Assembly: GCA_964571945.1 (NCBI GenBank)
Contig: CAZNFE010000001.1
Location: 1-38,982, forward strand
Length of the DNA stretch: 38,982 nt
Origin: an uncultured Pseudomonadales bacterium
Lineage (GTDB): Bacteria > Pseudomonadota > Gammaproteobacteria > Pseudomonadales > Azotimanducaceae
Direction: 5' to 3'
Shown here one piece after another: positions 1-38,775 of this stretch. The position numbers were made by a program, and so were the translations under genes. The notes beneath the pieces are model-generated. The model was not told the origin of the DNA. It saw only the letters and a list, made by a program, of their open reading frames with translations, and searched no databases. Each line of letters begins with the position of its first letter. Positions within the stretch are counted from its first letter, which is position 1.

Positions 1-544
1 AATCCCCACACATCACGCGATGATTCCCAAGTTGGTAGATCGCCCCGCGTTCGCTCTTGGGCTCTTCTGGCGGCTCTGGTATAGCATCCGGGTCCCCGTT
101 CCCACCACCTCCCGGGTCTGCAATCGGGCTGGCCATCTCGTCAAGCATTTCCTGGAGGGCCTCATTATCGACAGAGATTTCCTGCAGCAGCCCATCCAGA
201 ATCTCCTGGTCGGTTGCGGCCAGGGCCCCGATTGGGTCCAGAGTGGCAATGGCGAGCTTCTCTTCTTCTTCGGTGAGGTCCACATACATGCATGGGACCT
301 CGTTCTGTTCATGCCGGAGGGCAAGCTTGACCCTGAGGTGGCCGTCGATTAGGTGGCCGGTCTGGCGATTGACAACCACGTTTTGTATCCATCCGAGCTC
401 GTCGAGTGCGCCCTCCATAACTTCTTGTTGTCCTTGTGGATGGACGCGGAAATTGTGCGGATTTGCCAGGAGCTGGTCGGCCTGCTCGAATCCCTGGCCC
501 ACAATACGGTCCCGCCATTTACTCTTGAGCTTCTTCTTCGTCAC
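1..544 (-). CDS. ParB-like nuclease domain / DNA methyltransferase fusion, N-terminal part only (3' end lies beyond the left edge of the window)
   Basis: Not in the ORF track because it has no stop in the window. Minus-strand translation from GTG 544-542 reads TKKKLKSKWRDRIVGQGFEQADQLLANPHNFRVHPQGQQEVMEGALDELGWIQNVVVNRQTGHLIDGHLRVKLAL...EEPKSERGAIYQLGNHRVMCGD. This shows ParB/sulfiredoxin-fold motifs, then the LG.HR..CGD entry into the amino-methyltransferase domain usual in ParB-MTase fusions. GTGA start/stop overlap with the upstream RHH gene. Track ORFs 13..324(-), 309..518(-) and 57..635(+) are out-of-frame shadows of this gene. Confidence 0.7.
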   Translation of the reverse strand, partial: MTKKKLKSKWRDRIVGQGFEQADQLLANPHNFRVHPQGQQEVMEGALDELGWIQNVVVNRQTGHLIDGHLRVKLALRHEQNEVPCMYVDLTEEEEKLAIATLDPIGALAATDQEILDGLLQEISVDNEALQEMLDEMASPIADPGGGGNGDPDAIPEPPEEPKSERGAIYQLGNHRVMCGD

Positions 545-771
545 TGGGCTGCCCCTTGGTGGTTGCCAATTGCCTGTCTTGCCTCGGCCCACATGGCCTT
601 TTCCCGTACCTCCGGTAATATCAACCTGCGGATGAGCGCCGAATGGGTCTCCCCTGAATGCTCCGCGGCCTGTTCGATGAGGTCCATTTCTGATTCATTG
701 AACGAGATTTTGACGATCCGCTTTCGCTTTTTGGACTCGCTGAGGCGGGGGCGCCCGATCTTTGCCATCAT
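541..771 (-). CDS. small ribbon-helix-helix (MobC/CopG-like) DNA-binding protein; paralog of 7257..7436
   Basis: Track ORF 541..807 begins at TTG. ATG ATG at 771/768 follows AAAGGAGAAGGC. MMAKIGRPRLSESKKRKRIVKISFNESEMDLIEQAAEHSGETHSALIRRLIL reads as a basic N-arm, a beta-strand and two helices. The N-terminus MMA.IGRPRL matches the other RHH (MMAGVGRPRL). Confidence 0.6.
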   Translation of the reverse strand: MMAKIGRPRLSESKKRKRIVKISFNESEMDLIEQAAEHSGETHSALIRRLILPEVREKAMWAEARQAIGNHQGAAQ

Positions 772-792
772 GCCTTCTCCTTTTGTGGCCTT

Positions 793-820
793 TTTATACC
801 CGGCCAAAGTTGAGAAGCAA
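793..820 (-). promoter_or_regulatory. candidate sigma70-type promoter for the RHH / ParB-MTase operon
   Basis: Minus strand reads TTGCTT (820-815), a 16-nt spacer, then TATAAA (798-793). About 20 nt downstream lie AAAGGAG and the ATG at 771. The spacer ends CCGGGTATA, resembling the CCCGGTATA of the two strong promoters. Confidence 0.35.
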
Positions 821-846
821 GTCTTTTCTGGAAGATTTGGTGGGTT

Positions 847-865
847 GTGGCCTGGTAGTGGCCTG
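847..865 (-). repeat. two exact 8-bp direct repeats (minus strand CAGGCCAC) with 11-bp period, 26 nt upstream of the -35 at 820
   Basis: Plus strand has gtggcctg at 847-854 and again at 858-865. It lies in a 215-nt non-coding gap, large for this compact genome. The architecture matches that at 7517-7534. Confidence 0.45.
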
Positions 866-986
866 ATTCTGGCGCTCAGTATGGGTGTTTCTGGCCGTGA
901 CGCGCTCTGATTGCTTTGGGGTGTCCTACAGCGCCTGGGCCGGCCGGTCGCTCAGAATCGATTTATGGGGGTTTTTTTGCTATGCT

Positions 987-1364
987 CTACTGCATCACCT
1001 CAAACGTCCATTGCCCTGTCGACCTGTTCCAGGCCGCCGCGGTGAATTGGAGGATTGGGTACTGCTCAGCCACCACTTTGAACTTGACCCTGGCGTCATC
1101 TTCCCAGTGCGGCTTTCCGTCTTTTGCCCATATCTCCTTAATTTCAAAGCAGTTCAGAATGCAAGCTTCATCCATAACAACGAAATCCGGCGTGTACCAG
1201 GTCCTATCTGCAAGCCTTAGCTTCAGTGCCTCGAACCTGAACCATTGGATGATTCCCCGGTTGACATCTACGGTCAGCCGGTCCCGGAATGCGGCCTCTG
1301 CCTTCGTCATCCTGCCGGCCTGGTTGCTCTTGGGGCGTCGGCCCTTGGCTTTGCGGATTATCAC
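987..1364 (-). CDS. DUF1064-like PD-(D/E)xK nuclease (putative resolvase/endonuclease)
   Basis: The track start (GTG 1469) would overlap the HNH gene by 109 nt. An in-frame GTG at 1364 follows GGAGGTGGATGC and makes a GTGA overlap with the HNH stop. VIIRKAKGRRPKSNQAGRMTKAEAAFRDRL...YTPDFVV...CFEIKE...WEDDARVKFKVVAEQYP fits the DUF1064 pattern as I recall it (SKxEA ... YxxDF ... ExK ... KxK). Confidence 0.55.
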   Translation of the reverse strand: MIIRKAKGRRPKSNQAGRMTKAEAAFRDRLTVDVNRGIIQWFRFEALKLRLADRTWYTPDFVVMDEACILNCFEIKEIWAKDGKPHWEDDARVKFKVVAEQYPILQFTAAAWNRSTGQWTFEVMQ

Positions 1365-1666
1365 GCATCCACCTCCGTCTCTCCAATCTCCTGCCAGCTC
1401 CAGGTGCGGAACCGCTCCGTCCCGGGCCGGCGCTGATGGACGGCCATATGACAGCCGGCGCAAAGCCACACCGCATTATCCGCCCCTCCCCCTGGCCCGT
1501 GATTCTCAATCTCATCCTTGCGCAACTGGCTGCGGCGCTTCTTGTGGTGGCAGGATGAGCCAAAAGCGCGGTTGAGGTCCTTGCCGCAGCGGGCGCACTT
1601 GCCGTTCTGGCGTGTGTGCACATCAAGCCGCACGGATGTTCTGAAGCTCTTGTCCGGCTTTCTCAT
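1361..1666 (-). CDS. HNH endonuclease
   Basis: CARCGK ... HHKKRRSQ ... N ... WLCAGCHMAVH gives a CxxC plus HH..N..CxxCH His-Me finger. ATGA overlap with the upstream methyltransferase gene. Confidence 0.8.
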   Translation of the reverse strand: MRKPDKSFRTSVRLDVHTRQNGKCARCGKDLNRAFGSSCHHKKRRSQLRKDEIENHGPGGGADNAVWLCAGCHMAVHQRRPGTERFRTWSWQEIGETEVDA

Positions 1667-2286
1667 CCACCATACCCCATGAACCTACGGGCGATGTATC
1701 CGATGCACTTTGGGTTGACGTCCGATAGGATCCAGTTCTTGCCGTGCTCCATGCACTGCTCCGCTATGTGGCCATACCCGCAGCAGAAGTCAAGGACAGG
1801 CCCTTGGGCTTTTTCGCATATGAACCGCTCTGCCTGCAAGGTGGTCTTCTTGTGGACGTTCCTGGACGCTCCCCCATACAGCCCATAGAATGCCCACCCG
1901 CCATGAACCGGCATGTAGACATCAACCACCGCATCGGGACTCATCTGGCGAATCATGGACTTGCCCATCAGCACATAGGCGGGACATCCAGCCCGCCGCA
2001 CAATCGCGCGGACGTTTCCCAGATACTGCCGGTACAGCTTCGACGGCACCTCCACCCCGGCCTTGGCCATGAACTTCACGAACCCGTGCCGCCACGCCGG
2101 CTCACAATAGATCACGCCCGCGCCCCCAAACCTGCGATCCCATCCCACCATGACGTCATGAGCGAATGCCAGGTTTCCATCAGCCGCATATTCATCGATG
2201 GGCTCACAGTCAACGTCGCAGCCCCTGCCATTTACCGCTGAATGGTATGGTCTAGCCACAATATGCCATCCTAGCTTGTCCTTCAA
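1663..2286 (-). CDS. SAM-dependent methyltransferase-like protein, permuted (motif IV-like before motif I), atypical catalytic motif
   Basis: C-terminal VLDFCCGYGH...WILSDVNP looks like the SAM-binding motif I loop. N-terminal VIYCEPAW sits where beta-class amino-MTases carry (D/N/S)PP(Y/F/W). The start is uncertain. Track GTG 2355 overlaps the upstream gene by 73 nt, TTG 2286 gives a TTGA overlap, and GTG 2259 follows AGGATGG. Confidence 0.55.
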   Translation of the reverse strand: MKDKLGWHIVARPYHSAVNGRGCDVDCEPIDEYAADGNLAFAHDVMVGWDRRFGGAGVIYCEPAWRHGFVKFMAKAGVEVPSKLYRQYLGNVRAIVRRAGCPAYVLMGKSMIRQMSPDAVVDVYMPVHGGWAFYGLYGGASRNVHKKTTLQAERFICEKAQGPVLDFCCGYGHIAEQCMEHGKNWILSDVNPKCIGYIARRFMGYGG

Positions 2287-3086
2287 TCGTCGAAAGCAAA
2301 ACACTGTTGTCCTTCTGGCGACTGCTTTCCGTGACCGTCGTGTTTGAGCCACCACTCGAACATCTCATCTGGCGTCTCCCAGTCAGTGAATGGCTTTCCC
2401 CTGGCGATTCGGTCATCCCACAACAGCTTCATATATCGTCTCCACTGCATTGCAATACGTGGGTATCTTCTCGCCTCTTCCTCGCGCTGTTCGGTTGACG
2501 CCGAAGGACACATAAGACAACCGATACGCTTGCGTCCCTCATCATATAACTTGCAGTATAGCATATCATATTCGTGGATAAATTCCCACACGTCTCCTTC
2601 TGTCCAGTCTATGATGGGATGGAGGTATTTTCGGTTCTGCCCTTTGCGACACACCTCAAAGACCTTGCGGTTTTTTCGCTTGGTAGACTCCTCCCACCTG
2701 ACTCCTGTTACTATTAACCTGCCGGCCCCTCCGCGCTCCTTTAGTAGCTTACAACACCACCGTGCCCAGCGCATTGGCGGGAACCCATTGGACTTTTCGA
2801 GCATCATACTGTAGATGGTTTTTTCAGGGCGTTCGAAAATGACATCCGGATGGTCTCTCTTGATAAACCATACAAGTTCTGGTGGGTCTATTCCAGTGAC
2901 GTTGTAGTGTGCGTCATACTTTACACCAGCTATGTCAGCAAGCGCCTTAATGCAGCATGAATCTTTCCCGCCGCTGAAGGCAATGTAGAACCCTTTGCCT
3001 TCTGTCAGTTCCTCATATTGCCGAAAGCGGTCGATGGCCTGCTGCACCTTATCAACCTTGCCGAATAGCGTCTGTTCAATCAGCAT
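2283..3086 (-). CDS. PAPS-reductase-family PP-loop ATP pyrophosphatase (DndC/IbrA-like)
   Basis: FYIAFSGGKDSCC carries the SGGKDS PP-loop, followed by GVRWEESTKR and a C-terminal RIGCLMCP cysteine pair. ATG at 3086. Confidence 0.8.
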   Translation of the reverse strand: MLIEQTLFGKVDKVQQAIDRFRQYEELTEGKGFYIAFSGGKDSCCIKALADIAGVKYDAHYNVTGIDPPELVWFIKRDHPDVIFERPEKTIYSMMLEKSNGFPPMRWARWCCKLLKERGGAGRLIVTGVRWEESTKRKNRKVFEVCRKGQNRKYLHPIIDWTEGDVWEFIHEYDMLYCKLYDEGRKRIGCLMCPSASTEQREEEARRYPRIAMQWRRYMKLLWDDRIARGKPFTDWETPDEMFEWWLKHDGHGKQSPEGQQCFAFDD

Positions 3087-3107
3087 TTAATCATCCTACC
3101 CTTCCAT

Positions 3108-3136
3108 ATACTATATGATGAATTGGCAATATTCAA
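3108..3136 (-). promoter_or_regulatory. weak candidate promoter ahead of the PAPS-reductase-like gene
   Basis: Minus strand reads TTGAAT (3136-3131), a 17-nt spacer, then TAGTAT (3113-3108), in the 52-nt gap before ATG 3086. The match is only moderate. Confidence 0.25.
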
Positions 3137-3138
3137 CC

Positions 3139-3408
3139 CTAGAACGGCAGCTCATCATCATCGAACATCTCAGCCCCATCATGCAGGCGCTCCTCTTCCG
3201 GCGGCTTCTCTTCCGCTCGCTTCGGCCTGCGCTTCAGGATGTACCAGTCCGGGCTCCCATCCCGCTCTTTGCGGAAGTTCCGGAACATCACTACGCCTAT
3301 GGTCTTGCCATCAACATCGATCTCACCGGACATATAGGTGCGCTCATACTTGTCCTCCTTCTCCCACATCGCTCCCATTCTGTCTGTCGGTTTCTCGCCC
3401 TTCGCCAT
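3139..3408 (-). CDS. small DUF736-like protein ending in an SSB-type acidic tip (..MFDDDELPF)
   Basis: Track ORF starts at TTG 3438. ATG 3408 follows AGGAGAACAGC. The protein has three parts. A compact N-domain reads MAKGEKPTDRMGAMWEKEDKYERTYMSGEIDVDGKTIGVVMFRNFRKERDGSPDWYILKRR. A charged linker reads PKRAEEKPPEEERLHDG. The C-terminus DDDELPF resembles the bacterial SSB tip DDDIPF. Confidence 0.55.
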   Translation of the reverse strand: MAKGEKPTDRMGAMWEKEDKYERTYMSGEIDVDGKTIGVVMFRNFRKERDGSPDWYILKRRPKRAEEKPPEEERLHDGAEMFDDDELPF

Positions 3409-3477
3409 GCTGTTCTCCTGTTTGCAGCCGCCTGTCAATCTCGGGCAGCTTGACGGTCATCATCTTTGCCAGGCACC

Positions 3478-4149
3478 CTATCGCCTTATCCGCCTATCTG
3501 GTCCGGTGATCTCTATGTTCTCGAAACCGCCGAGGCGTGAAGCAATGCGCGGCTCAAATTCAGCTATCTCTTCGAGCGTGCAATTGCTCGTCACTATCGT
3601 GTCAAGCATCTCTGCCTCTCTTCGCCATATGATATTGTACATGGTATCCCATGCCCACTCTGATATTGTGCGTGCCAAGTCATCAATCACCAGGACAGGA
3701 ATCGTCTTGTATTTCTGCATCGCGTCGTAGGCTGAGCCGCGACCATCAAATGTCTTCTTAATCTCATCGAAGATTTCACCTGAATGTGCGAAGATCCCGA
3801 TATCATTCTTCCTGTTTGGCTTCAGCTGTGCGGCCCTATGGCGCAATAGGGCGCAAGCGACCTGAGTCTTGCCCCTACCTGGCTTGCCCCATAGGAATAC
3901 GCCTGAGCGCTGCCATTCGATATTGAGCAGCCTTTCCAGCGTTTGCCCCTCGTAATCACCTATATCAACCTTACGGTATCGGCGAGGAAGATATATCTTG
4001 GATACAGATTGCTCGGTAGATTCAGCGTCCTCTTCACTCGTCTCCTCCGATGACAAAGTCTGGCTTTCTATCTCGGAACTCTGCTGCCGCTTCAGACAAA
4101 ACTCCTTCATTCTTTCCAGAGGATCGCCGATTCGTTCCGGATCTGCCAT
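3478..4149 (-). CDS. DnaC/IstB-like AAA+ helicase loader
   Basis: Walker A is GKPGRGKT and Walker B is PVLVIDDL, followed by TSN. ATG 4149 follows AAGGAGAAAGGCA. The N-terminal approx 38 codons overlap the upstream gene (see findings). Confidence 0.8.
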   Translation of the reverse strand: MADPERIGDPLERMKEFCLKRQQSSEIESQTLSSEETSEEDAESTEQSVSKIYLPRRYRKVDIGDYEGQTLERLLNIEWQRSGVFLWGKPGRGKTQVACALLRHRAAQLKPNRKNDIGIFAHSGEIFDEIKKTFDGRGSAYDAMQKYKTIPVLVIDDLARTISEWAWDTMYNIIWRREAEMLDTIVTSNCTLEEIAEFEPRIASRLGGFENIEITGPDRRIRR

Positions 4150-4810
4150 TGCCTTTCTCCTTTGGGTAGCCTTCCAGCCGCCAGTTCTTCAAAATACCGT
4201 CCACATAGCCCGGAAACTTCTTTCCGCACGCCTCGGCTTCCGCCATTGCCTTGCGGATCCACTGGGCATCATGCACCTCCAGCCACAGCGAGATCTTGCC
4301 GCTTGCCGGTGAACCAAAGACCCGCATGGCTTCTGATTCAAGCTGAAGCAACTGCTCTTCTGCTTCCTCGCGCACGCGAGAGAGACACTTATTTGGATCT
4401 GACTCTAACTCTAACATGCTTCGGCCTGGCTTACTTTTTGCTTCAGCCTGGCTTAAGCCTGGCTTATCATGCATCCCTTTACGCTTGCTGACTTTACCAC
4501 CACGCCTGCCTGCCTCACTCAATTTTTGCCTCTTATCCATGAGCTTTGCATACTCAGCAGTCACCCGCTTGTTTGCCCACCCTTCATGGGTTAGCTCAAA
4601 GCCTGCCTTAAGCACGGCTTTAGCCTGGCTTATCTCGCATCCCTTGCCGATCCTGCACAGCATGTCATCGTCATCTGGGAGCGGCCCGTCAATCCATTGG
4701 CTGAACATAAATGCCATGTAGATTCCGAACTCAGCTGCGTCCATGCAGATGACCTTGCGATCACTCATCAGGTCAGCTATCCAAAGAGGCATGTAAGGTA
4801 GATCGCCCAT
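4034..4810 (-). CDS. replication initiation/organizer protein (DUF1376-like N-domain + DnaD/DnaB_2-like C-domain)
   Basis: N-terminal LPYMPLWIADLMSD...AAEFGIYMAFMFSQW is DUF1376-like. C-terminal ISLWLEVHDAQWIRKAMAEAEACGKKFPGYVDGILKNWRLEG is DnaD-like. Track start is GTG 4828. ATG 4810 follows GGGGG and gives a normal N-terminus. Confidence 0.7.
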   Translation of the reverse strand: MGDLPYMPLWIADLMSDRKVICMDAAEFGIYMAFMFSQWIDGPLPDDDDMLCRIGKGCEISQAKAVLKAGFELTHEGWANKRVTAEYAKLMDKRQKLSEAGRRGGKVSKRKGMHDKPGLSQAEAKSKPGRSMLELESDPNKCLSRVREEAEEQLLQLESEAMRVFGSPASGKISLWLEVHDAQWIRKAMAEAEACGKKFPGYVDGILKNWRLEGYPKEKGNGRSGTNRRSSGKNEGVLSEAAAEFRDRKPDFVIGGDE

Positions 4811-7463: not shown

Positions 7464-7491
7464 ATTATATACCGGGTTTATTGTGTGTCAA
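7464..7491 (-). promoter_or_regulatory. consensus sigma70 promoter (TTGACA-16-TATAAT)
   Basis: Minus strand reads TTGACA (7491-7486), a 16-nt spacer, then TATAAT (7469-7464), followed by RBS AAAGGAG and ATG 7436. It shares a 17-nt identical core AATAAACCCGGTATATA (7466-7482) with the promoter at 10901-10929. It overlaps the last codons of the HNH gene. Confidence 0.65.
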
Positions 7492-8062
7492 GAGGTTGTT
7501 GGATAATCAACCTACGCTGTCCAGTCCTGTCCAGCTTCTCCTTCCTGCGGCGCTCCGCGGCACGGGCCGCAACCTGAGCAGTGTCCAGCTTGTGGCACCG
7601 TATGCAAAGTGTCCGCAGGTTCTCGAGCTCATTGCCGCCGCCCTCGCTTACCGGGATGATGTGGTCTGCATCCCATATGTCACCGCGCCTGATGCACCAT
7701 TGGCGCTCCAGGCTTCTCTTGACATTGATCCACTCATAGATATTGTGCTCATTGGCCCATCGCCAAAGCGTATGGGTGGCGATGCGGTGCACCTCGCGCT
7801 TCTTTTCAGTGTCGAGCCCGCAGGCTGCGCATATTCCCTTGTCGCGCTCAAACACCTTAAAGCGGATATAACCCCAGTCAGTCAGGAGGCTGAAGCGATC
7901 CACGCATTCCTGACTGCACCAAGTTCGCCGGCCACGCCCAACCGGGCGGTCACAAAAGCAGCAGATTGGTTCACCATTGGACGTCACCCTGCCATAGATC
8001 CTCGTGATCTTCTGGCCCGTCCTGGGTGCGCGCGTCACAATCCTGCGTATCTTCTCGGTCAT
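7478..8062 (-). CDS. HNH endonuclease with N-terminal Cys-rich (zinc-ribbon-like) region
   Basis: CCFCDRP..WCSQEC lies at the N-terminus. ERDKGICAACG ... WDADHIIPVSEGGGNELENLRTLCIRCHK is a canonical HNH core. ATGA overlap with the upstream gene. Confidence 0.85.
   Translation of the reverse strand: MTEKIRRIVTRAPRTGQKITRIYGRVTSNGEPICCFCDRPVGRGRRTWCSQECVDRFSLLTDWGYIRFKVFERDKGICAACGLDTEKKREVHRIATHTLWRWANEHNIYEWINVKRSLERQWCIRRGDIWDADHIIPVSEGGGNELENLRTLCIRCHKLDTAQVAARAAERRRKEKLDRTGQRRLIIQQPLDTQ
7517..7534 (-). repeat. two exact 8-bp direct repeats (minus strand CTGGACAG) with 10-bp period, 25 nt upstream of the -35 at 7491
   Basis: Plus strand has ctgtccag at 7517-7524 and 7527-7534. It lies inside the 3' end of the HNH ORF. 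Position and periodicity match the repeat pair at 847-865 upstream of the paralogous RHH gene. Confidence 0.4.
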
Positions 8063-35486: not shown

Positions 35487-35661
35487 CGTCATCCCCATGC
35501 TTAACATATCGTGCTGCCCTCAAGTCAACACTATCAACCGTCCATCTATCAATGACCCTGAGTGCTTCTCCCTCTGTTTGAAACGCCCCGAGGCTTCCCA
35601 TCACAGACCATTCATCATCACCATAGCGCGCTTCAATCATCCAGATGCCTCGTGTTGTCAT
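35479..35661 (-). CDS. hypothetical small acidic protein (60 aa; 53 aa if started at 35640)
   Basis: ATG 35661 follows GAGGGGCCAA. An alternative ATG at 35640 lies in a GATGATTGAAGC junction identical to the one at 35486. Confidence 0.45.
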   Translation of the reverse strand: MTTRGIWMIEARYGDDEWSVMGSLGAFQTEGEALRVIDRWTVDSVDLRAARYVKHGDDDD

Positions 35662-36118
35662 TTGGCCCCTCTGCCTCAAGATATTCAGCCTCCCTGCTGA
35701 TGACGTATATTCTAGTCCCTGGCCCGACCCAGAGCTGCTTGCCTACCTGGCCGCTGAATGGATGGTCACATGGTATGCCGCATGTCTGTGTCACCACATA
35801 TACATTCGGCGCCACCTCTCCCCCGCAACCGCCCAGCAACATCACCAATATCAGGGCCGCCAGCAGAACCGCAATCCAGCATATCCGCTTGTCAATGTCT
35901 CTCACTCCTTCACCTCCCTCTTCTTGTTCCTTCTCTTGACATCCGGATCGTCTATTCCATGCTGTCACTAGCGCCTTGCGGCTGAAGTATCCTGCGCCTG
36001 CCGCATCCTCACGCAAATAGCATCCCTTGGTCGGGCAGCGACTCACCGTGTACATCATACCCGGACCCCTGACCTTCATTTTGGCACCGCAGAATGGGCA
36101 TGGCCTTAGCTCGGTCAT
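35633..36118 (-). CDS. Lar-like (restriction alleviation family) zinc ribbon continued in frame into a signal-peptide/lipobox-like segment and a small extracytoplasmic domain
   Basis: MTELRPCPFCGAKMKV...YTVSRCPTKGCYL...SRKALVTAWNRR matches the Lar-family pattern (LKPCPFCG ... C..C ... A...WNRR). Then come an acidic linker, KRICWIAVLLAALILVMLLGGCGGE and about 70 more aa. ATGA overlap with the upstream gene. Confidence 0.6.
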   Translation of the reverse strand: MTELRPCPFCGAKMKVRGPGMMYTVSRCPTKGCYLREDAAGAGYFSRKALVTAWNRRSGCQEKEQEEGGEGVRDIDKRICWIAVLLAALILVMLLGGCGGEVAPNVYVVTQTCGIPCDHPFSGQVGKQLWVGPGTRIYVISREAEYLEAEGPNDNTRHLDD

Positions 36119-36339
36119 CTATCCTCCTCTCCGCGCAGTGCTTTACGTACAATCTCTTGCCTAGTCTTCGTGAACGGACAGGTCTTCAACCATGCTTGAT
36201 GATATATTCCACCGCTTCCGCGCCAAGTAACATCAGGCATATCTCCGTTCTTCTCTGCATGACATTCAGGACACCAAGCCTCCGTCCCTTCATCACTACG
36301 ATAGGTATCCTTGCATATCTCGCAGACCCTTGTATGCAT
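36115..36339 (-). CDS. zinc-finger protein (74 aa)
   Basis: MHTRVCEICKD...WCPECH has CxxC...CxxC. ATG 36339 follows GGAGGTGGAGTG and shares one nt with the upstream TGA. Confidence 0.55.
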   Translation of the reverse strand: MHTRVCEICKDTYRSDEGTEAWCPECHAEKNGDMPDVTWRGSGGIYHQAWLKTCPFTKTRQEIVRKALRGEEDR

Positions 36340-37919
36340 CACTCCACCTCCTCTGCTGGTGTGGCAACAACGTACCCAAGTATGCTCAAATGTGTTAGCA
36401 CAGCATCTACGGCCTCCATTGACGCTTGATCTTCCTGCCCTACGTTAACACTGTTTGATATTAGTTCGACAAGCGATGAGTCCCATGTCCAACCACCTTT
36501 GCCGAGATGCTGCCTTGGCAATGGTTTGCACAGCACCTTCTCCCCGTCAGCATCGGCGGGGTGTTGCTTTGGCTTGAAAATCTTATACCCATCAGAAGAT
36601 AGAACCCTGAACCTTTTGGCCACAAACCGCATGGCATGTTCGTAAAAACGCTTATACCCTACAAGAGATGTTGGCTTAATCTGGTCACTCATGGTGTCTA
36701 TATCGTCAAGCATACACCATAGTAGTCCTGCGTCGGTATTCGTTAAATCCTTTCCCTCGTCAGCATCGGCAGGTGGTGCTGGTCTCTGTGTTACTGGTCT
36801 GCCACCGATTTTCCCTTGTTTCTTATCCAACTCCGGCAGCTTGCCGTCTGTGAGAATAATGCGGTAGTTGCTCAGCGAACCCCAACCGGATAGACTATCC
36901 TTATGCTTTACTGAACACCATTCGCCATTGCCGTTGATATATTGCGATATTCCGTTAGGTACTGAATAGTGCTCGTCCCACATCGCCATTGTGTCTTGCT
37001 CGGACCAGCCAAGGTTGACCAGTTCGTCCAGCTGAATGTTTGGGGCTGGCTTGTAGCACACCATGCAGATCACAAATGCGCCGTGTGTGCCGTCGTCCAT
37101 TATTGCGTAATCACGCTTCGCGCAGCAGTCCTCCTGCGGCTGTTGCTTTGGGGTGAAGTGCTTGGCCGACCCTCCACAAGCCCACCAAGCACCGCGGGCA
37201 TGCTTCTGTGTCCACTTCTGCCCTGGTTGAGGAGATGGCACGTCGTACACTCTGGGGTCGACGTTACATGTTCCATCGGCATTGCAGTTGCCGCAATCCT
37301 CGCACCGCCGTTCTGGTTGCTTGGTGTCTACATAGCGTCCACGACCGCAGCCGCAAACCTGCCCAATGTATGAGAAGTCTTGACGCTCACCGCACATGGA
37401 ACACTCGCATTGACGTTCTGGTTTCTTGGGCTTGAAGTTGTCTGTGTATGATCGATTCCTGCTGCAGTACTCGCAATCATCCGATGGCTCACCCCAGGCC
37501 TCACAGCATTCGCCACACTCAGGTTCTTCTGGTTGTGACTTCTCAAGCGCCGCAATGCGCCCCATCTGCTGCATGGCGACCTCGGCCGTCCTCTCTTCCG
37601 ACTTCTCCAGTTCGTCCACGCGCCTCATCGTTGCCAGGACCTGCTCGTTGACCCCGTGGATGCTGTATGCGGATTCCTCGTTCTCTAGTGCTTCGATACG
37701 CTCATCAAGTCCACCCCATGCCGAGGTTGCACAATCTTCCCTCGCCTTTACGGAAGTCATATCCTGCTCCAGGGCATCGACCTTCTTCTCGAGCTCAGCG
37801 AACGCCGCATTGTCCGGCGTATCGCACTCAAGGTTTGAAATACGCTCCTTTATTGCGTCAATGCTCTCGTTTACCTGCATCTCCCAAGCGATACGAGCGC
37901 GTTCGTTAATATCATCCAT
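36339..37919 (-). CDS. large hypothetical protein: N-terminal coiled coil, Cys-dense repeat region, C-terminal globular part
   Basis: Residues ~1-130 are heptad-like (..ELEKKVDALEQDM.. ..RIEALENEE.. ..RVDELEKSEE..). Residues 136-289 contain about 19 Cys by my count, with recurring ..PK(K/Q)PER(Q/R)CE.C.. units. PPADADEGKDL and HPADADGEKVL are duplicated later. ATG 37919 overlaps the radical-SAM gene by 8 nt. Confidence 0.6.
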   Translation of the reverse strand: MDDINERARIAWEMQVNESIDAIKERISNLECDTPDNAAFAELEKKVDALEQDMTSVKAREDCATSAWGGLDERIEALENEESAYSIHGVNEQVLATMRRVDELEKSEERTAEVAMQQMGRIAALEKSQPEEPECGECCEAWGEPSDDCEYCSRNRSYTDNFKPKKPERQCECSMCGERQDFSYIGQVCGCGRGRYVDTKQPERRCEDCGNCNADGTCNVDPRVYDVPSPQPGQKWTQKHARGAWWACGGSAKHFTPKQQPQEDCCAKRDYAIMDDGTHGAFVICMVCYKPAPNIQLDELVNLGWSEQDTMAMWDEHYSVPNGISQYINGNGEWCSVKHKDSLSGWGSLSNYRIILTDGKLPELDKKQGKIGGRPVTQRPAPPADADEGKDLTNTDAGLLWCMLDDIDTMSDQIKPTSLVGYKRFYEHAMRFVAKRFRVLSSDGYKIFKPKQHPADADGEKVLCKPLPRQHLGKGGWTWDSSLVELISNSVNVGQEDQASMEAVDAVLTHLSILGYVVATPAEEVE

Positions 37920-38775
37920 CACTCATCCCCTTCGCTCTCATTCGTTCCCTACACAGCTTCTTGACCTTCGCCTTGGTGATCGACGGCCTATCCCACGCCC
38001 GCTGCAAATCGTCCCAGTCCTCATTGCTGTTCCCATGCTTGTCCATCCATAGCATCCCAAACGGTAGAAAACCGGCCATCCACGCATCGAGCAGGCGATT
38101 CTCTGCATCACGCATGTTGTCTCCAGGCCACCCCATCAACACGTAGCACCGGAGATGTGAGCGGGTGAAGTTTGCGATTCGCAACATGCGCCCTGCCTCA
38201 AACAGCGGTTCCCTGTCGTCCGGTGTGTCGTAGGCAAAGAACATGGATGATGGACGCAGATCCCACAGGTGCTCTACGTGCCACCACTCAAGCCGTGCGG
38301 CCTCAAGGCCGCCCTTGAACTCTATGGCACACCCCTTGTGGGCCTGCACATCCAGCATTCCAAACACGCGCTCAATGTGGACCCGAGAACAGGCCAGCAG
38401 ATTGTCGTCTTGCACGATATGTCCCGGCTGAATTGGCAACTCTACCACCTCTCGATTATGCCTTTTCCACACCTCGCAGAACCAACAATCATTCGGACAC
38501 CCACGAGACGTGATGGTGATACCCTTCTTCAGGTAACGCCCTGGAACAAATTCTCCGTTGCGCTCTGGCGTGGCCGGCCCGCCTATCTTTACCGGAGCAA
38601 CGTGTCGCCACATATCTGCAAGGTCATCCGCTCTTTGCTGGTCGAATGTGAACGCCACAGACACATGGACCTCATCAATGTCGTCAGATAGGCCGATTGC
38701 TGGAGGTGTGCCAATGAACGCATAATCATCTACTGGCGTGTATCTTGTCTGACGCGGGAACACCCTTGCTATCAT
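37912..38775 (-). CDS. radical SAM enzyme (287 aa)
   Basis: ITITSRGCPNDCWFCEVW is a CX3CX2C cluster in the SRGCP..C.FC context seen in MiaB/B12-class radical SAM proteins. No SPASM-type C-terminal Cys cluster is visible. GAGAGGA lies 6 nt before the ATG. Confidence 0.75.
   Translation of the reverse strand: MIARVFPRQTRYTPVDDYAFIGTPPAIGLSDDIDEVHVSVAFTFDQQRADDLADMWRHVAPVKIGGPATPERNGEFVPGRYLKKGITITSRGCPNDCWFCEVWKRHNREVVELPIQPGHIVQDDNLLACSRVHIERVFGMLDVQAHKGCAIEFKGGLEAARLEWWHVEHLWDLRPSSMFFAYDTPDDREPLFEAGRMLRIANFTRSHLRCYVLMGWPGDNMRDAENRLLDAWMAGFLPFGMLWMDKHGNSNEDWDDLQRAWDRPSITKAKVKKLCRERMRAKGMSDG

Follow-up and report, generated by a model that had tools for sequence, protein, structure and literature searches.

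A family of small predicted DNA methyltransferases tied to PAPS-reductase-superfamily and ParB genes in phages, and a variant gene set beside the terminase genes of a tailed phage

Introduction

Do six genes that stand in a row at one end of a phage sequence form a single system acting on DNA? The question is raised by positions 1–3086 of a 38,982-nucleotide stretch of DNA (hereafter the window) from an uncultured Pseudomonadales bacterium (contig CAZNFE010000001.1 of assembly GCA_964571945.1). The six consecutive genes, designated A to F in reading order, are all on the minus strand, and there is no plus-strand coding in the first 3.1 kb. An independent gene call on a Joint Genome Institute (JGI) metagenome contig, L001, which is 99.98% identical to window positions 1–4207 and reaches 2.1 kb beyond the left edge of the window, returned the same six genes. 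A prediction made from the sequence alone (the original prediction) had described them as a mostly 4-nt-overlapped string encoding a PP-loop (ATP-pyrophosphatase-loop) enzyme resembling phosphoadenosine phosphosulfate (PAPS) reductase (A), a methyltransferase-like protein (B), an HNH nuclease (C), a DUF1064 PD-(D/E)xK nuclease (D), a ribbon-helix-helix (RHH) regulator (E), and a fusion of a ParB domain and a methyltransferase (F). It had compared the set to the IbrA/IbrB and DndB/DndC themes, and had suggested a self-contained module that modifies and cuts, or modifies and protects, DNA.

IbrA and IbrB (YbdN and YbdM in Escherichia coli) are a PP-loop enzyme of the PAPS reductase superfamily and a ParB_N protein, whose genes occur together in phages, frequently a little ahead of the terminase genes; the IbrA/IbrB name reportedly goes back to Sandt and Hill and the activation of eib genes in E. 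coli ECOR-9. The SGGKDS PP-loop and conserved cysteines of DndC, SspD and BrxP, which belong to the Dnd, Ssp and type 4 BREX phosphorothioation systems, are also present in gene A, and Dnd has a ParB-superfamily partner, DndB, comparable to the ParB domain in the window. Within BREX, the branch that carries out phosphorothioation has BrxP as its component of the PAPS-reductase type (PMC12839542). ParB-family proteins as required activators of DNA-modifying enzymes have precedents in the ParB-dependent thymine dioxygenases and in DpdA/DpdB: a phage ParB homologue is required for the action of a thymine dioxygenase on double-stranded DNA (PMC13229309), and DpdB works with DpdA, as DndB does with DndC (PMC12839542, PMC10853773).

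The IbrA/ParB theme is known. What is new is the link of the family of gene B to IbrA/ParB clusters, together with the variant of the theme found in the window; the six-gene 'island' is not a unit.

Results

Gene B belongs to an unannotated family with a predicted beta-class methyltransferase fold

At the sequence level gene B gives only sub-threshold methyltransferase matches, and no family model for it exists in Pfam, PHROG or NCBIfam (library scans with PHROGs, Pfam or PADLOC covered 26 open reading frames (ORFs) towards the two ends of the window and on L001). B itself has no match to PF01555, and weak PF01555 matches occur in 12 of 100 family members. A word-index homologue search found one relative only; a full HMMER scan of 1.84 billion cluster representatives found 457 relatives at E ≤ 1e-3, of which 278 reach E ≤ 1e-10; almost all are stand-alone proteins of 185–205 residues (about 195). 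Three members used as tblastn queries against 50,697 GenBank phage records gave no match, and only 2 B loci were found in 185,579 species-representative genomes.

Structures were predicted with AlphaFold2, with the use of database homologues. The model of B has a predicted local distance difference test score (pLDDT) of 93.7 and a permuted Rossmann fold, in which motif IV lies ahead of a C-terminal motif I. In a Foldseek search of the PDB the model matches only beta-class N6-adenine/N4-cytosine DNA methyltransferases, plus METTL3/14, with M1.HpyAVI, CcrM and RsrI at the top; in BFVD it matches phage N4/N6 methylases, with TM-scores of about 0.5–0.6. This fold bears out the methyltransferase-like label that B had been given.

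Specifically, motif I of B reads DFCCGYG, lies at the C-terminus, and aligns to the FxGxG motif of RsrI and of F, while the motif IV variant EPAW comes after strand 4 of the model, a placement that fits in the model; no profile alignment spans motif IV. Among 100 family members, motif IV reads EPAW in 29, EPSW in 14, EPPW in 12, DLPW in 7 and DPPW in 4, with DPPW and EPPW counted as canonical forms. Shared across the family are YHS, (D/E)-x-x-W following a strand, DFCCGYG, and SD-N--CIGYI. Motif I is conserved, as are the aspartate of motif II and the tryptophan of motif IV; the acidic residue of motif IV is present in nearly all members, and B of the window retains every family-invariant residue. 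Motif IV of B is, to judge from these patterns, a derived but probably active amino-methyltransferase motif. The profile-detectable part of B is confined to the C-terminal S-adenosylmethionine (SAM)-binding motif, which gives weak matches to RsrI, MJ0882 and PF01555. Furthermore, hhalign aligned the B family with the methyltransferase family of F at motif I only, and its alignment with the short methylase of Methanosarcina virus MetMV was not significant.

On the strength of its predicted structure, B is a member of an unannotated family of beta-class amino-methyltransferases of about 195 residues. It has the same permuted fold as the PF01555 methyltransferases (M1.HpyAVI, CcrM, RsrI and PvuII), but differs from them in its size, in falling under every Pfam threshold, and in a motif IV that is mostly EP[ASP]W; no target-recognition domain was identified in B, although no search aimed at one was made; moreover, the family is tied to PAPS-reductase and ParB genes, not to restriction enzymes.

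Relatives of B lie in clusters with IbrA-type and ParB_N genes

Loci of B relatives were fetched from IMG/VR, metagenomes, genomes and Logan contigs, and clustering at 70% identity left 33 non-redundant lineages. In all fetched loci we called genes as simple ORFs; hidden Markov models for ParB, PAPS, HNH and the large terminase subunit (TerL) were iterated within the fetched sets, are less sensitive than Pfam, and had their key family assignments spot-checked with Pfam.

A PAPS-reductase-like gene lies on the same strand within 3 kb of B in 24 of the 33 lineages, and a ParB_N gene in 26. Among the lineages whose flanking sequence extends 2.5 kb or more to each side, the PAPS-reductase-like gene is present in 12 of 12 and ParB in 11 of 12, with the ParB gene of the twelfth 3.1 kb away; HNH genes are present in none of the 12. 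B is essentially never found without a neighbour from the PAPS reductase superfamily. The partners were confirmed by Pfam as PAPS_reduct + DUF3440 (the IbrA type) and ParB_N, so that the B family is embedded in exactly the clusters known as IbrA/IbrB, and the originally proposed pairing of ParB and PAPS-reductase genes proves to be a real theme to which B is tied.

The clusters are tightly packed, often with 4-nt overlaps, and their orders include ParB-B-IbrA-ParB-ParB-ParB-TerS?-TerL (TerS, small terminase subunit), IbrA-B-ParB, and ParB-B'-B-X-IbrA. In several independent phages they lie directly upstream of the terminase genes, like the set in the window, and several of the B loci, like the window phage, also have a recognisable TerS. 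The stand-alone ParB beside B and the N-terminus of F match one and the same PADLOC model, and ParB|B thus looks like a split form of a ParB-methyltransferase fusion.

Further genes recur in these clusters. The clusters (L068–L121; for example L071, 5358–7343, and L073, 4124–5532) often hold a small beta-class methyltransferase paralogue, B', of about 213–229 residues with DPPW, DTPW or DSPW, immediately upstream of B; another frequent member, placed between B and IbrA, is a protein of 245–290 residues with no Pfam match. In one database protein (P0004, 410 residues) a second methyltransferase-like region is apparently fused to B.

IbrA/IbrB pairs of cultured phages have no B-type methyltransferase, unlike the window. 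In cluster-B mycobacteriophages, pairs of IbrA and ParB without B occupy the same pre-terminase position as the set in the window. Mycobacterium phage Morty007 (73–5236), for example, has a ParB-like gene, two small ORFs, an IbrA-type PAPS reductase gene, a further ParB-like gene and a terminase gene; this order stands at the left end of the genome in the cultured cluster-B phages, with no small terminase annotated. In the literature searched we found no paper that links a methyltransferase family to IbrA/ParB clusters or defines their chemistry, which fits the lack of library models for B.

Gene A is a PP-loop enzyme outside the CysH and IbrA types

The PAPS-reductase-like PP-loop enzyme of the original prediction is confirmed for gene A by matches to PF01507 PAPS_reduct (E 1.9e-21) and phrog_424 (E 3.8e-34). 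Its clade comprises 6170 relatives at E ≤ 1e-20 and takes in genes of archaeal viruses, Clostridium phages and Bacteroides phages. The SGGKDS ATP-pyrophosphatase loop is present in all 78 aligned relatives, in which Cys111, Cys112, Cys178, Cys190 and Cys193 are invariant and Cys146 is present in 95%. The C-terminal cysteine of the ECG[LI]H motif, the catalytic residue of CysH sulfonucleotide reductases, is found in none of the 78, and there is no conserved cysteine in their last 60 residues. The AlphaFold2 model of A (pLDDT 91.9) has the [4Fe-4S] adenosine 5'-phosphosulfate (APS) reductases 2goy and 7lhr as its best PDB matches, with 2oq2 and 1sur among the further top Foldseek matches. Against the NCBIfam cysH/APS reductase models, A scores 55.6, 53.5 and 49.6 bits, versus cut-offs of 154, 165 and 235 bits.

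Among defence-system profiles, the best match of A is to PADLOC BrxP (E 3.6e-18), and covers positions 122–331 of 779 only; at 267 residues, A covers about 210 of the 779 profile positions and has no DUF4007. The DndC profile gives no match to A, and the 26 scanned ORFs yielded no recognisable DndA/D/E or SspA/B/C, although the host could supply them. The IbrA type consists of PAPS_reduct + DUF3440 in about 360–430 residues, whereas A contains PAPS_reduct only, with no DUF3440, and has cysteines of the Fe-S type. Consistent with this difference, comparison of A with the IbrA-type partners of B gives 15–27 bits, and these partners score 114–943 bits against one another; the IbrA-type proteins touch the BrxP and DndC profiles solely at the PP-loop. 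Because A falls short of NCBIfam, IbrA-type and DndC matches and lacks ECG[LI]H, we classify it from its sequence as neither CysH nor IbrA nor demonstrably DndC/SspD, and as a PP-loop enzyme with an apparent Fe-S site. The likeness to IbrA and DndC that had been proposed for A is not supported by these profile and score comparisons.

The neighbourhoods of A were surveyed in 66 viral loci, with relatives at 39–62% identity over the best-matching segment. None contains a true B-family gene; one locus matched the iterated profile, which cross-matches other methyltransferases. Of about 58 loci, 9 contain an HNH gene, 1 an E-like gene and none a D gene, a ParB domain is present in 5–6 and an N6/N4 methyltransferase in 9–10, and HNH, RusA, DUF1064 and PDDEXK genes are sporadic around A-clade genes. 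In the closest relatives looked up (L205, L206 and L214/215) a methyltransferase gene lies directly upstream of A, and in MetMV it lies at position +2, two genes downstream.

One of these loci is a dense cluster of DNA-modification genes. L205, on a 48.8-kb contig (10709–12673), has a close relative of A (59% identity by table, 54% in the alignment), directly preceded by a gene for a 557-residue N6/N4 methyltransferase; 4–6 kb downstream are a TRM5/TYW2-type methyltransferase, a ParB_N protein and a Mom-family protein.

At the far end of the window lies a gene for a radical-SAM-like protein with the motif CPNDCWFC (Table 1), which matches phrog_9298 (E 2.5e-10) and, below threshold, Pfam Radical_SAM; in the PDB it shows weak similarity, in the CxxxCxxC region only, to the methylthiotransferases MiaB and RimO. 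In 8 of about 58 A-clade loci, a relative of this gene is found no more than 6 kb from the PAPS-reductase gene. Seen from the radical-SAM side, a PAPS-type gene occurs within 7 kb in 11 of 59 non-redundant lineages, directly adjacent in 6 of those 11, and in 32 of 59 a C5 or N6/N4 DNA methyltransferase is nearby. The radical-SAM-like protein may be a partner of A.

Gene F is a typical phage fusion of ParB_N and a methyltransferase

The window cuts gene F at its edge. L001 supplies the remainder, for which the original prediction had pointed beyond the edge: the full protein has 411 residues, combines ParB_N with a beta-class N6/N4 DNA methyltransferase, and is followed by TerS and TerL. The fusion called from the fragment is upheld by the match to phrog_498, which improves from E 3e-31 for the window fragment to E 4e-87 for the full protein; F also matches phrog_620 (E 4e-16). 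On L001, F has the motifs DPPY (TDPPY) and FLGSGST (FxGxG), and PF01555 is recorded for the gene, so that its methyltransferase domain is a regular member of the PF01555 methyltransferases, and F is a typical member of the phage ParB_N-methyltransferase fusions of phrog_498, with nothing notable to set it apart.

IMG/VR holds at least 600 matches to F, of which 80 were inspected. In 26 of these the gene is directly followed by TerS, as in L001; the conserved neighbour of the F family is the small terminase subunit. HNH genes are present in 7 of the 80 loci, in several of them directly upstream of F, and no D-like or E-like genes were found near any of the 80. Unlike the window, the phrog_498 loci do not have an RHH gene upstream of F as a conserved feature, and a separate count found an E-like gene upstream of none of 50 F relatives.

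Genes C, D and E are probably ordinary residents of the region

The HNH nuclease called for gene C is supported by phrog_740 (E 1.3e-10), the best of eight HNH PHROGs matched, and by the pattern CxxC...HH...N...CxxCH, visible in the sequence as CARC...CHHK...N...CAGCH; Pfam HNH (PF01844) scores 19.8 bits, just under its cut-off of 21.4. The small phage HNH families that C matches include terminase-associated ones, and in several related loci an HNH gene lies directly upstream of the ParB-methyltransferase and TerS genes. C probably assists terminase-linked cutting.

Gene D matches phrog_190 'Holliday junction resolvase' (E 8e-14) and has a visible D...ExK motif (YTPDF...FEIKE). It has no Pfam match at E ≤ 0.01, DUF1064 (PF06356) included, and the PF06356 model was present in the searched library, where it matched a neighbour of an A relative at another locus at 1e-28. 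The PD-(D/E)xK part of the original call therefore stands, and its DUF1064 label is not verified. D, which has three close relatives only in IMG/VR, probably resolves branched replication or recombination intermediates. Searches of the PDB with the sequences of C and D gave nothing usable.

Gene E, called an RHH regulator, has matches of that kind (NikA-like, 25.1 bits; DUF6290, 20.3 bits; RHH_7, 19.3 bits), all of them below the cut-off of 27 bits; it is probably a local regulator.

By PHROG and by size, C and D match the small HNH genes found near phage terminases and the phage Holliday-junction resolvases (phrog_190, DUF1064, RusA), and they are positioned like these genes at the end of the replication module, although C is three genes away from TerS in the window. 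D-like genes are absent from the B, A and F locus sets alike. C, D and E are most readily understood as ordinary members of this genome region, none of them conserved with A, B or F.

The six genes form an accessory segment between two phage modules

The layout of the segment is given in Table 1. Read from the sequence, the overlapping junctions are ATGA for B/C, GTGA for C/D and GTGA for E/F. The A/B junction is TTGA solely when B starts at TTG 2286, and the alternative start, GTG 2256, which is preceded by AGGA at a distance of 9 nt, is no less likely. F has an alternative start at GTG 502. D and E are uncoupled, and the gap between them splits the gene string into 4 + 2, so that the described run of mostly 4-nt overlaps holds for the ATGA and GTGA junctions, and possibly for TTGA, but is interrupted between D and E. 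As 4-nt overlaps are commonplace across phage genomes, they are no evidence for a shared function of the six genes.

Table 1. Features of the six-gene segment and further window genes referred to in the text (window coordinates)
Feature	Position	Strand	Description
Gene A	2283..3086	-	267 aa; PAPS-reductase-superfamily PP-loop enzyme; PF01507
Gene B	1663..2256 (start GTG) or 1663..2286 (start TTG)	-	~200 aa; methyltransferase-like
Gene C	1361..1666	-	101 aa; HNH endonuclease
Gene D	987..1364	-	125 aa; PD-(D/E)xK-type, resolvase-like nuclease
Gap	775..986		212 nt, non-coding
Gene E	541..774	-	77 aa; ribbon-helix-helix-like
Gene F	1..544	-	N-terminal 181 aa of 411-aa ParB_N + methyltransferase fusion; cut at window edge
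Second HNH gene	7478..8062	-	194 aa; HNH endonuclease
Lar-like gene	35633..36118	-	161 aa; Lar-like restriction-alleviation match
ORF	36339..37922	-	527 aa; no PHROG or Pfam match
Radical-SAM-like gene	37912..38775	-	287 aa; radical-SAM-like protein

No consensus promoter or terminator was scored in the gap, and a promoter and terminator scan of window 1–4300 gave a site count no higher than in shuffled sequence. The gap has no Rfam match and folds no better than shuffled sequence (z −1.5), and the whole window contains no tRNA and no Rfam family.

Upstream of A lie genes for a DnaC-like loader, a primosomal/initiator protein, a RecE-like exonuclease, a second HNH endonuclease and an SbcC-like protein. 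The second HNH gene, which matches 18 HNH PHROGs, belongs to the recombination module and stands beside the RecE-like exonuclease gene. Downstream of F on L001 (4899–6319) are a 45-residue ORF, TerS (134 residues) and the N-terminus of TerL. With replication and recombination genes upstream and packaging genes downstream, the six-gene stretch is an accessory segment carried by many tailed phages between replication/recombination genes and terminase genes. TerL is not in the window itself, which thus represents most of a phage genome minus the segment from the C-terminus of F to TerL. Circularity of the window was considered and rejected: its right end does not continue F, and L001 places TerS and TerL past the left edge. 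Nucleotide similarity to GenBank phages is limited to a single weak match, to a methylase only, and no close relatives of the DnaC-like gene were found for a comparison of synteny.

Outside the six-gene stretch, the Lar-like gene (phrog_599, E 1.2e-6), which has the terminase region on one side and the portal gene on the other, is an anti-restriction candidate in its own right; the 527-residue ORF lies between it and the radical-SAM-like gene. Across the whole window GATC is under-represented (142 observed versus 230 expected under a maximal-order Markov model), as are CTAG, AATT, CATG and GTAC, and the depletion of GATC is too unspecific to assign a methyltransferase target.

Discussion

From the folds, motifs and gene associations observed here we infer, tentatively and with slightly less than even confidence, that A, B and F are a ParB-assisted set that modifies phage DNA after replication and lies beside housekeeping nucleases. 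A PAPS-type gene, a B gene and a ParB domain are each present exactly once in the window, co-oriented within 3 kb. In the mechanism we propose, the ParB domain would load on, or open, phage double-stranded DNA and thereby activate its partner enzymes. B and F would pass methyl groups to exocyclic amines, with F methylating phage DNA, while A, at the expense of ATP, would adenylate a group on the DNA and add a second mark; our leading guess for its nature is a backbone change resembling phosphorothioate, or a change of a base. Before packaging, the marks would shield the DNA from host restriction. The part assigned to ParB has good precedent by analogy with the systems that depend on DpdB, DndB and the thymine dioxygenase ParB; the partners of ParB in the dioxygenase and DpdA systems are an iron/2-oxoglutarate dioxygenase and a transglycosylase, whereas here they would be a PP-loop enzyme and methyltransferases, so that the analogy is mechanistic only.

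Within such a set, the BrxP-like, Fe-S-type A would stand in for IbrA, and the ParB domain of F for the free ParB. Unlike IbrB loci, the window holds no free ParB_N gene, because its only ParB domain, which lies 1.7 kb downstream of A, makes up the N-terminal part of F and is joined there to a methyltransferase. As B is essentially never found without a PAPS-superfamily neighbour, these replacements are the simplest reading of the arrangement, a reading drawn from a single instance. A wider claim, that the B family, a PP-loop enzyme and ParB_N make up an undescribed three-component phage system that places a compound mark on DNA before packaging, is conceivable and, in our estimate, doubtful; such a system would combine ATP-dependent adenylation-substitution with N-methylation, would use ParB as a loader on double-stranded DNA or as an activator, and would have a swappable PP-loop component and a ParB component that can be fused.

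Several observations weigh against cooperation of A, B and F. The 101 genes flanking A relatives fall into 43 Pfam families, none seen more than three times, and the A clade usually occurs without B, ParB or any fixed neighbour. A DNA methyltransferase lies directly beside A-clade genes at 3 of 97 positions, which is not significant (p 0.36), and no PAPS reductase was found near any of the 80 F relatives. Elsewhere the PAPS-type partners of B are all of the IbrA type (PAPS_reduct + DUF3440, no CC/CxxC); A is of another subfamily, and its pairing with B is so far unique. Furthermore, no cysteine desulfurase and no DndD/E/SspB/C-like partner was found among the scanned ORFs of the window. The mixed neighbours of the A clade, the lack of PAPS reductases near F relatives and the gap between D and E also speak against the single module of the original prediction.

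The heterogeneous flanks of A, the separation of the F family from PAPS reductases, the membership of A in a subfamily other than the one that B accompanies, and the conservation of C, D and E with none of the other genes also suit a purely mosaic origin, in which six accessory genes were picked up independently at a site prone to recombination, with A, B and F each working on its own and B orphaned by the loss of its IbrA and ParB partners. We consider this origin rather unlikely, and it nevertheless keeps substantial weight. An orphan B sits poorly with the retention of all family-invariant residues, and B adjoins a member of the superfamily of its obligate partner, with a ParB domain 1.7 kb downstream in the same orientation; given a PAPS-superfamily gene in all 12 well-flanked B lineages, chance adjacency of B to A is unlikely. 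A role as an accessory of regulation or packaging would agree with the annotation of IbrA/IbrB as co-activators in SEED and phage records, and with the position of clusters directly upstream of terminase genes, which the window shares with several B lineages and with cluster-B mycobacteriophages, the last of these having no small terminase annotated. We hold this role to be improbable, since the IbrA/ParB pair is not beside terminase genes in Streptococcus and Flavobacterium phages, a recognisable TerS is also present in the window phage (on L001) and in several B loci, and PP-loop and SAM-dependent methyltransferase families that both appear catalytically intact from their motifs are hard to square with mere DNA-binding factors.

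The modify-and-cut proposal, in which the HNH and PD-(D/E)xK nucleases would cleave DNA not marked by A, B and F in the manner of restriction-modification, draws on the translational coupling of both nuclease genes to B (ATGA, GTGA), and is nonetheless strongly disfavoured. HNH genes are rare, and PD-(D/E)xK and RHH genes essentially never found, near relatives of A, B and F; in particular, the well-flanked B lineages have no HNH gene, and no B, A or F set has a D-like gene. D, moreover, belongs to a resolvase-type PHROG and C to small phage HNH families that include terminase-associated ones, and a second HNH gene stands in the recombination module. We give the least credence of all to A being an auxiliary metabolic, CysH-like sulfonucleotide reductase, unconnected with DNA, that would raise sulfate assimilation in the host. 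The family goes by 'phosphoadenosine phosphosulfate reductase' in databases, APS/PAPS reductases are the closest structural matches, and CC...CxxC resembles APS reductase; yet the ECG[LI]H cysteine is missing from all 78 relatives while the canonical SGGKDS is present in every one, the NCBIfam CysH score is far under its cut-off (55.6 versus 154 bits), and A is placed among DNA-metabolism genes.

For the window itself the significance of a ParB-assisted set of A, B and F is the narrower one: just these three of the six genes belong to the PAPS-reductase/ParB theme. For the theme it is broader. IbrA/IbrB-type pairs are widespread in phages and prophages, with one in E. coli K-12, and their function has been undefined for two decades. 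The finding of a family with a predicted DNA-methyltransferase fold almost exclusively in IbrA/ParB clusters provides independent genomic evidence that these clusters act on DNA, and B, the PP-loop enzyme and ParB offer a concrete trio of proteins for study. If the PP-loop step installs a new mark, the trio would represent a further chemistry of phage counter-defence and another case of ParB acting as a cofactor.

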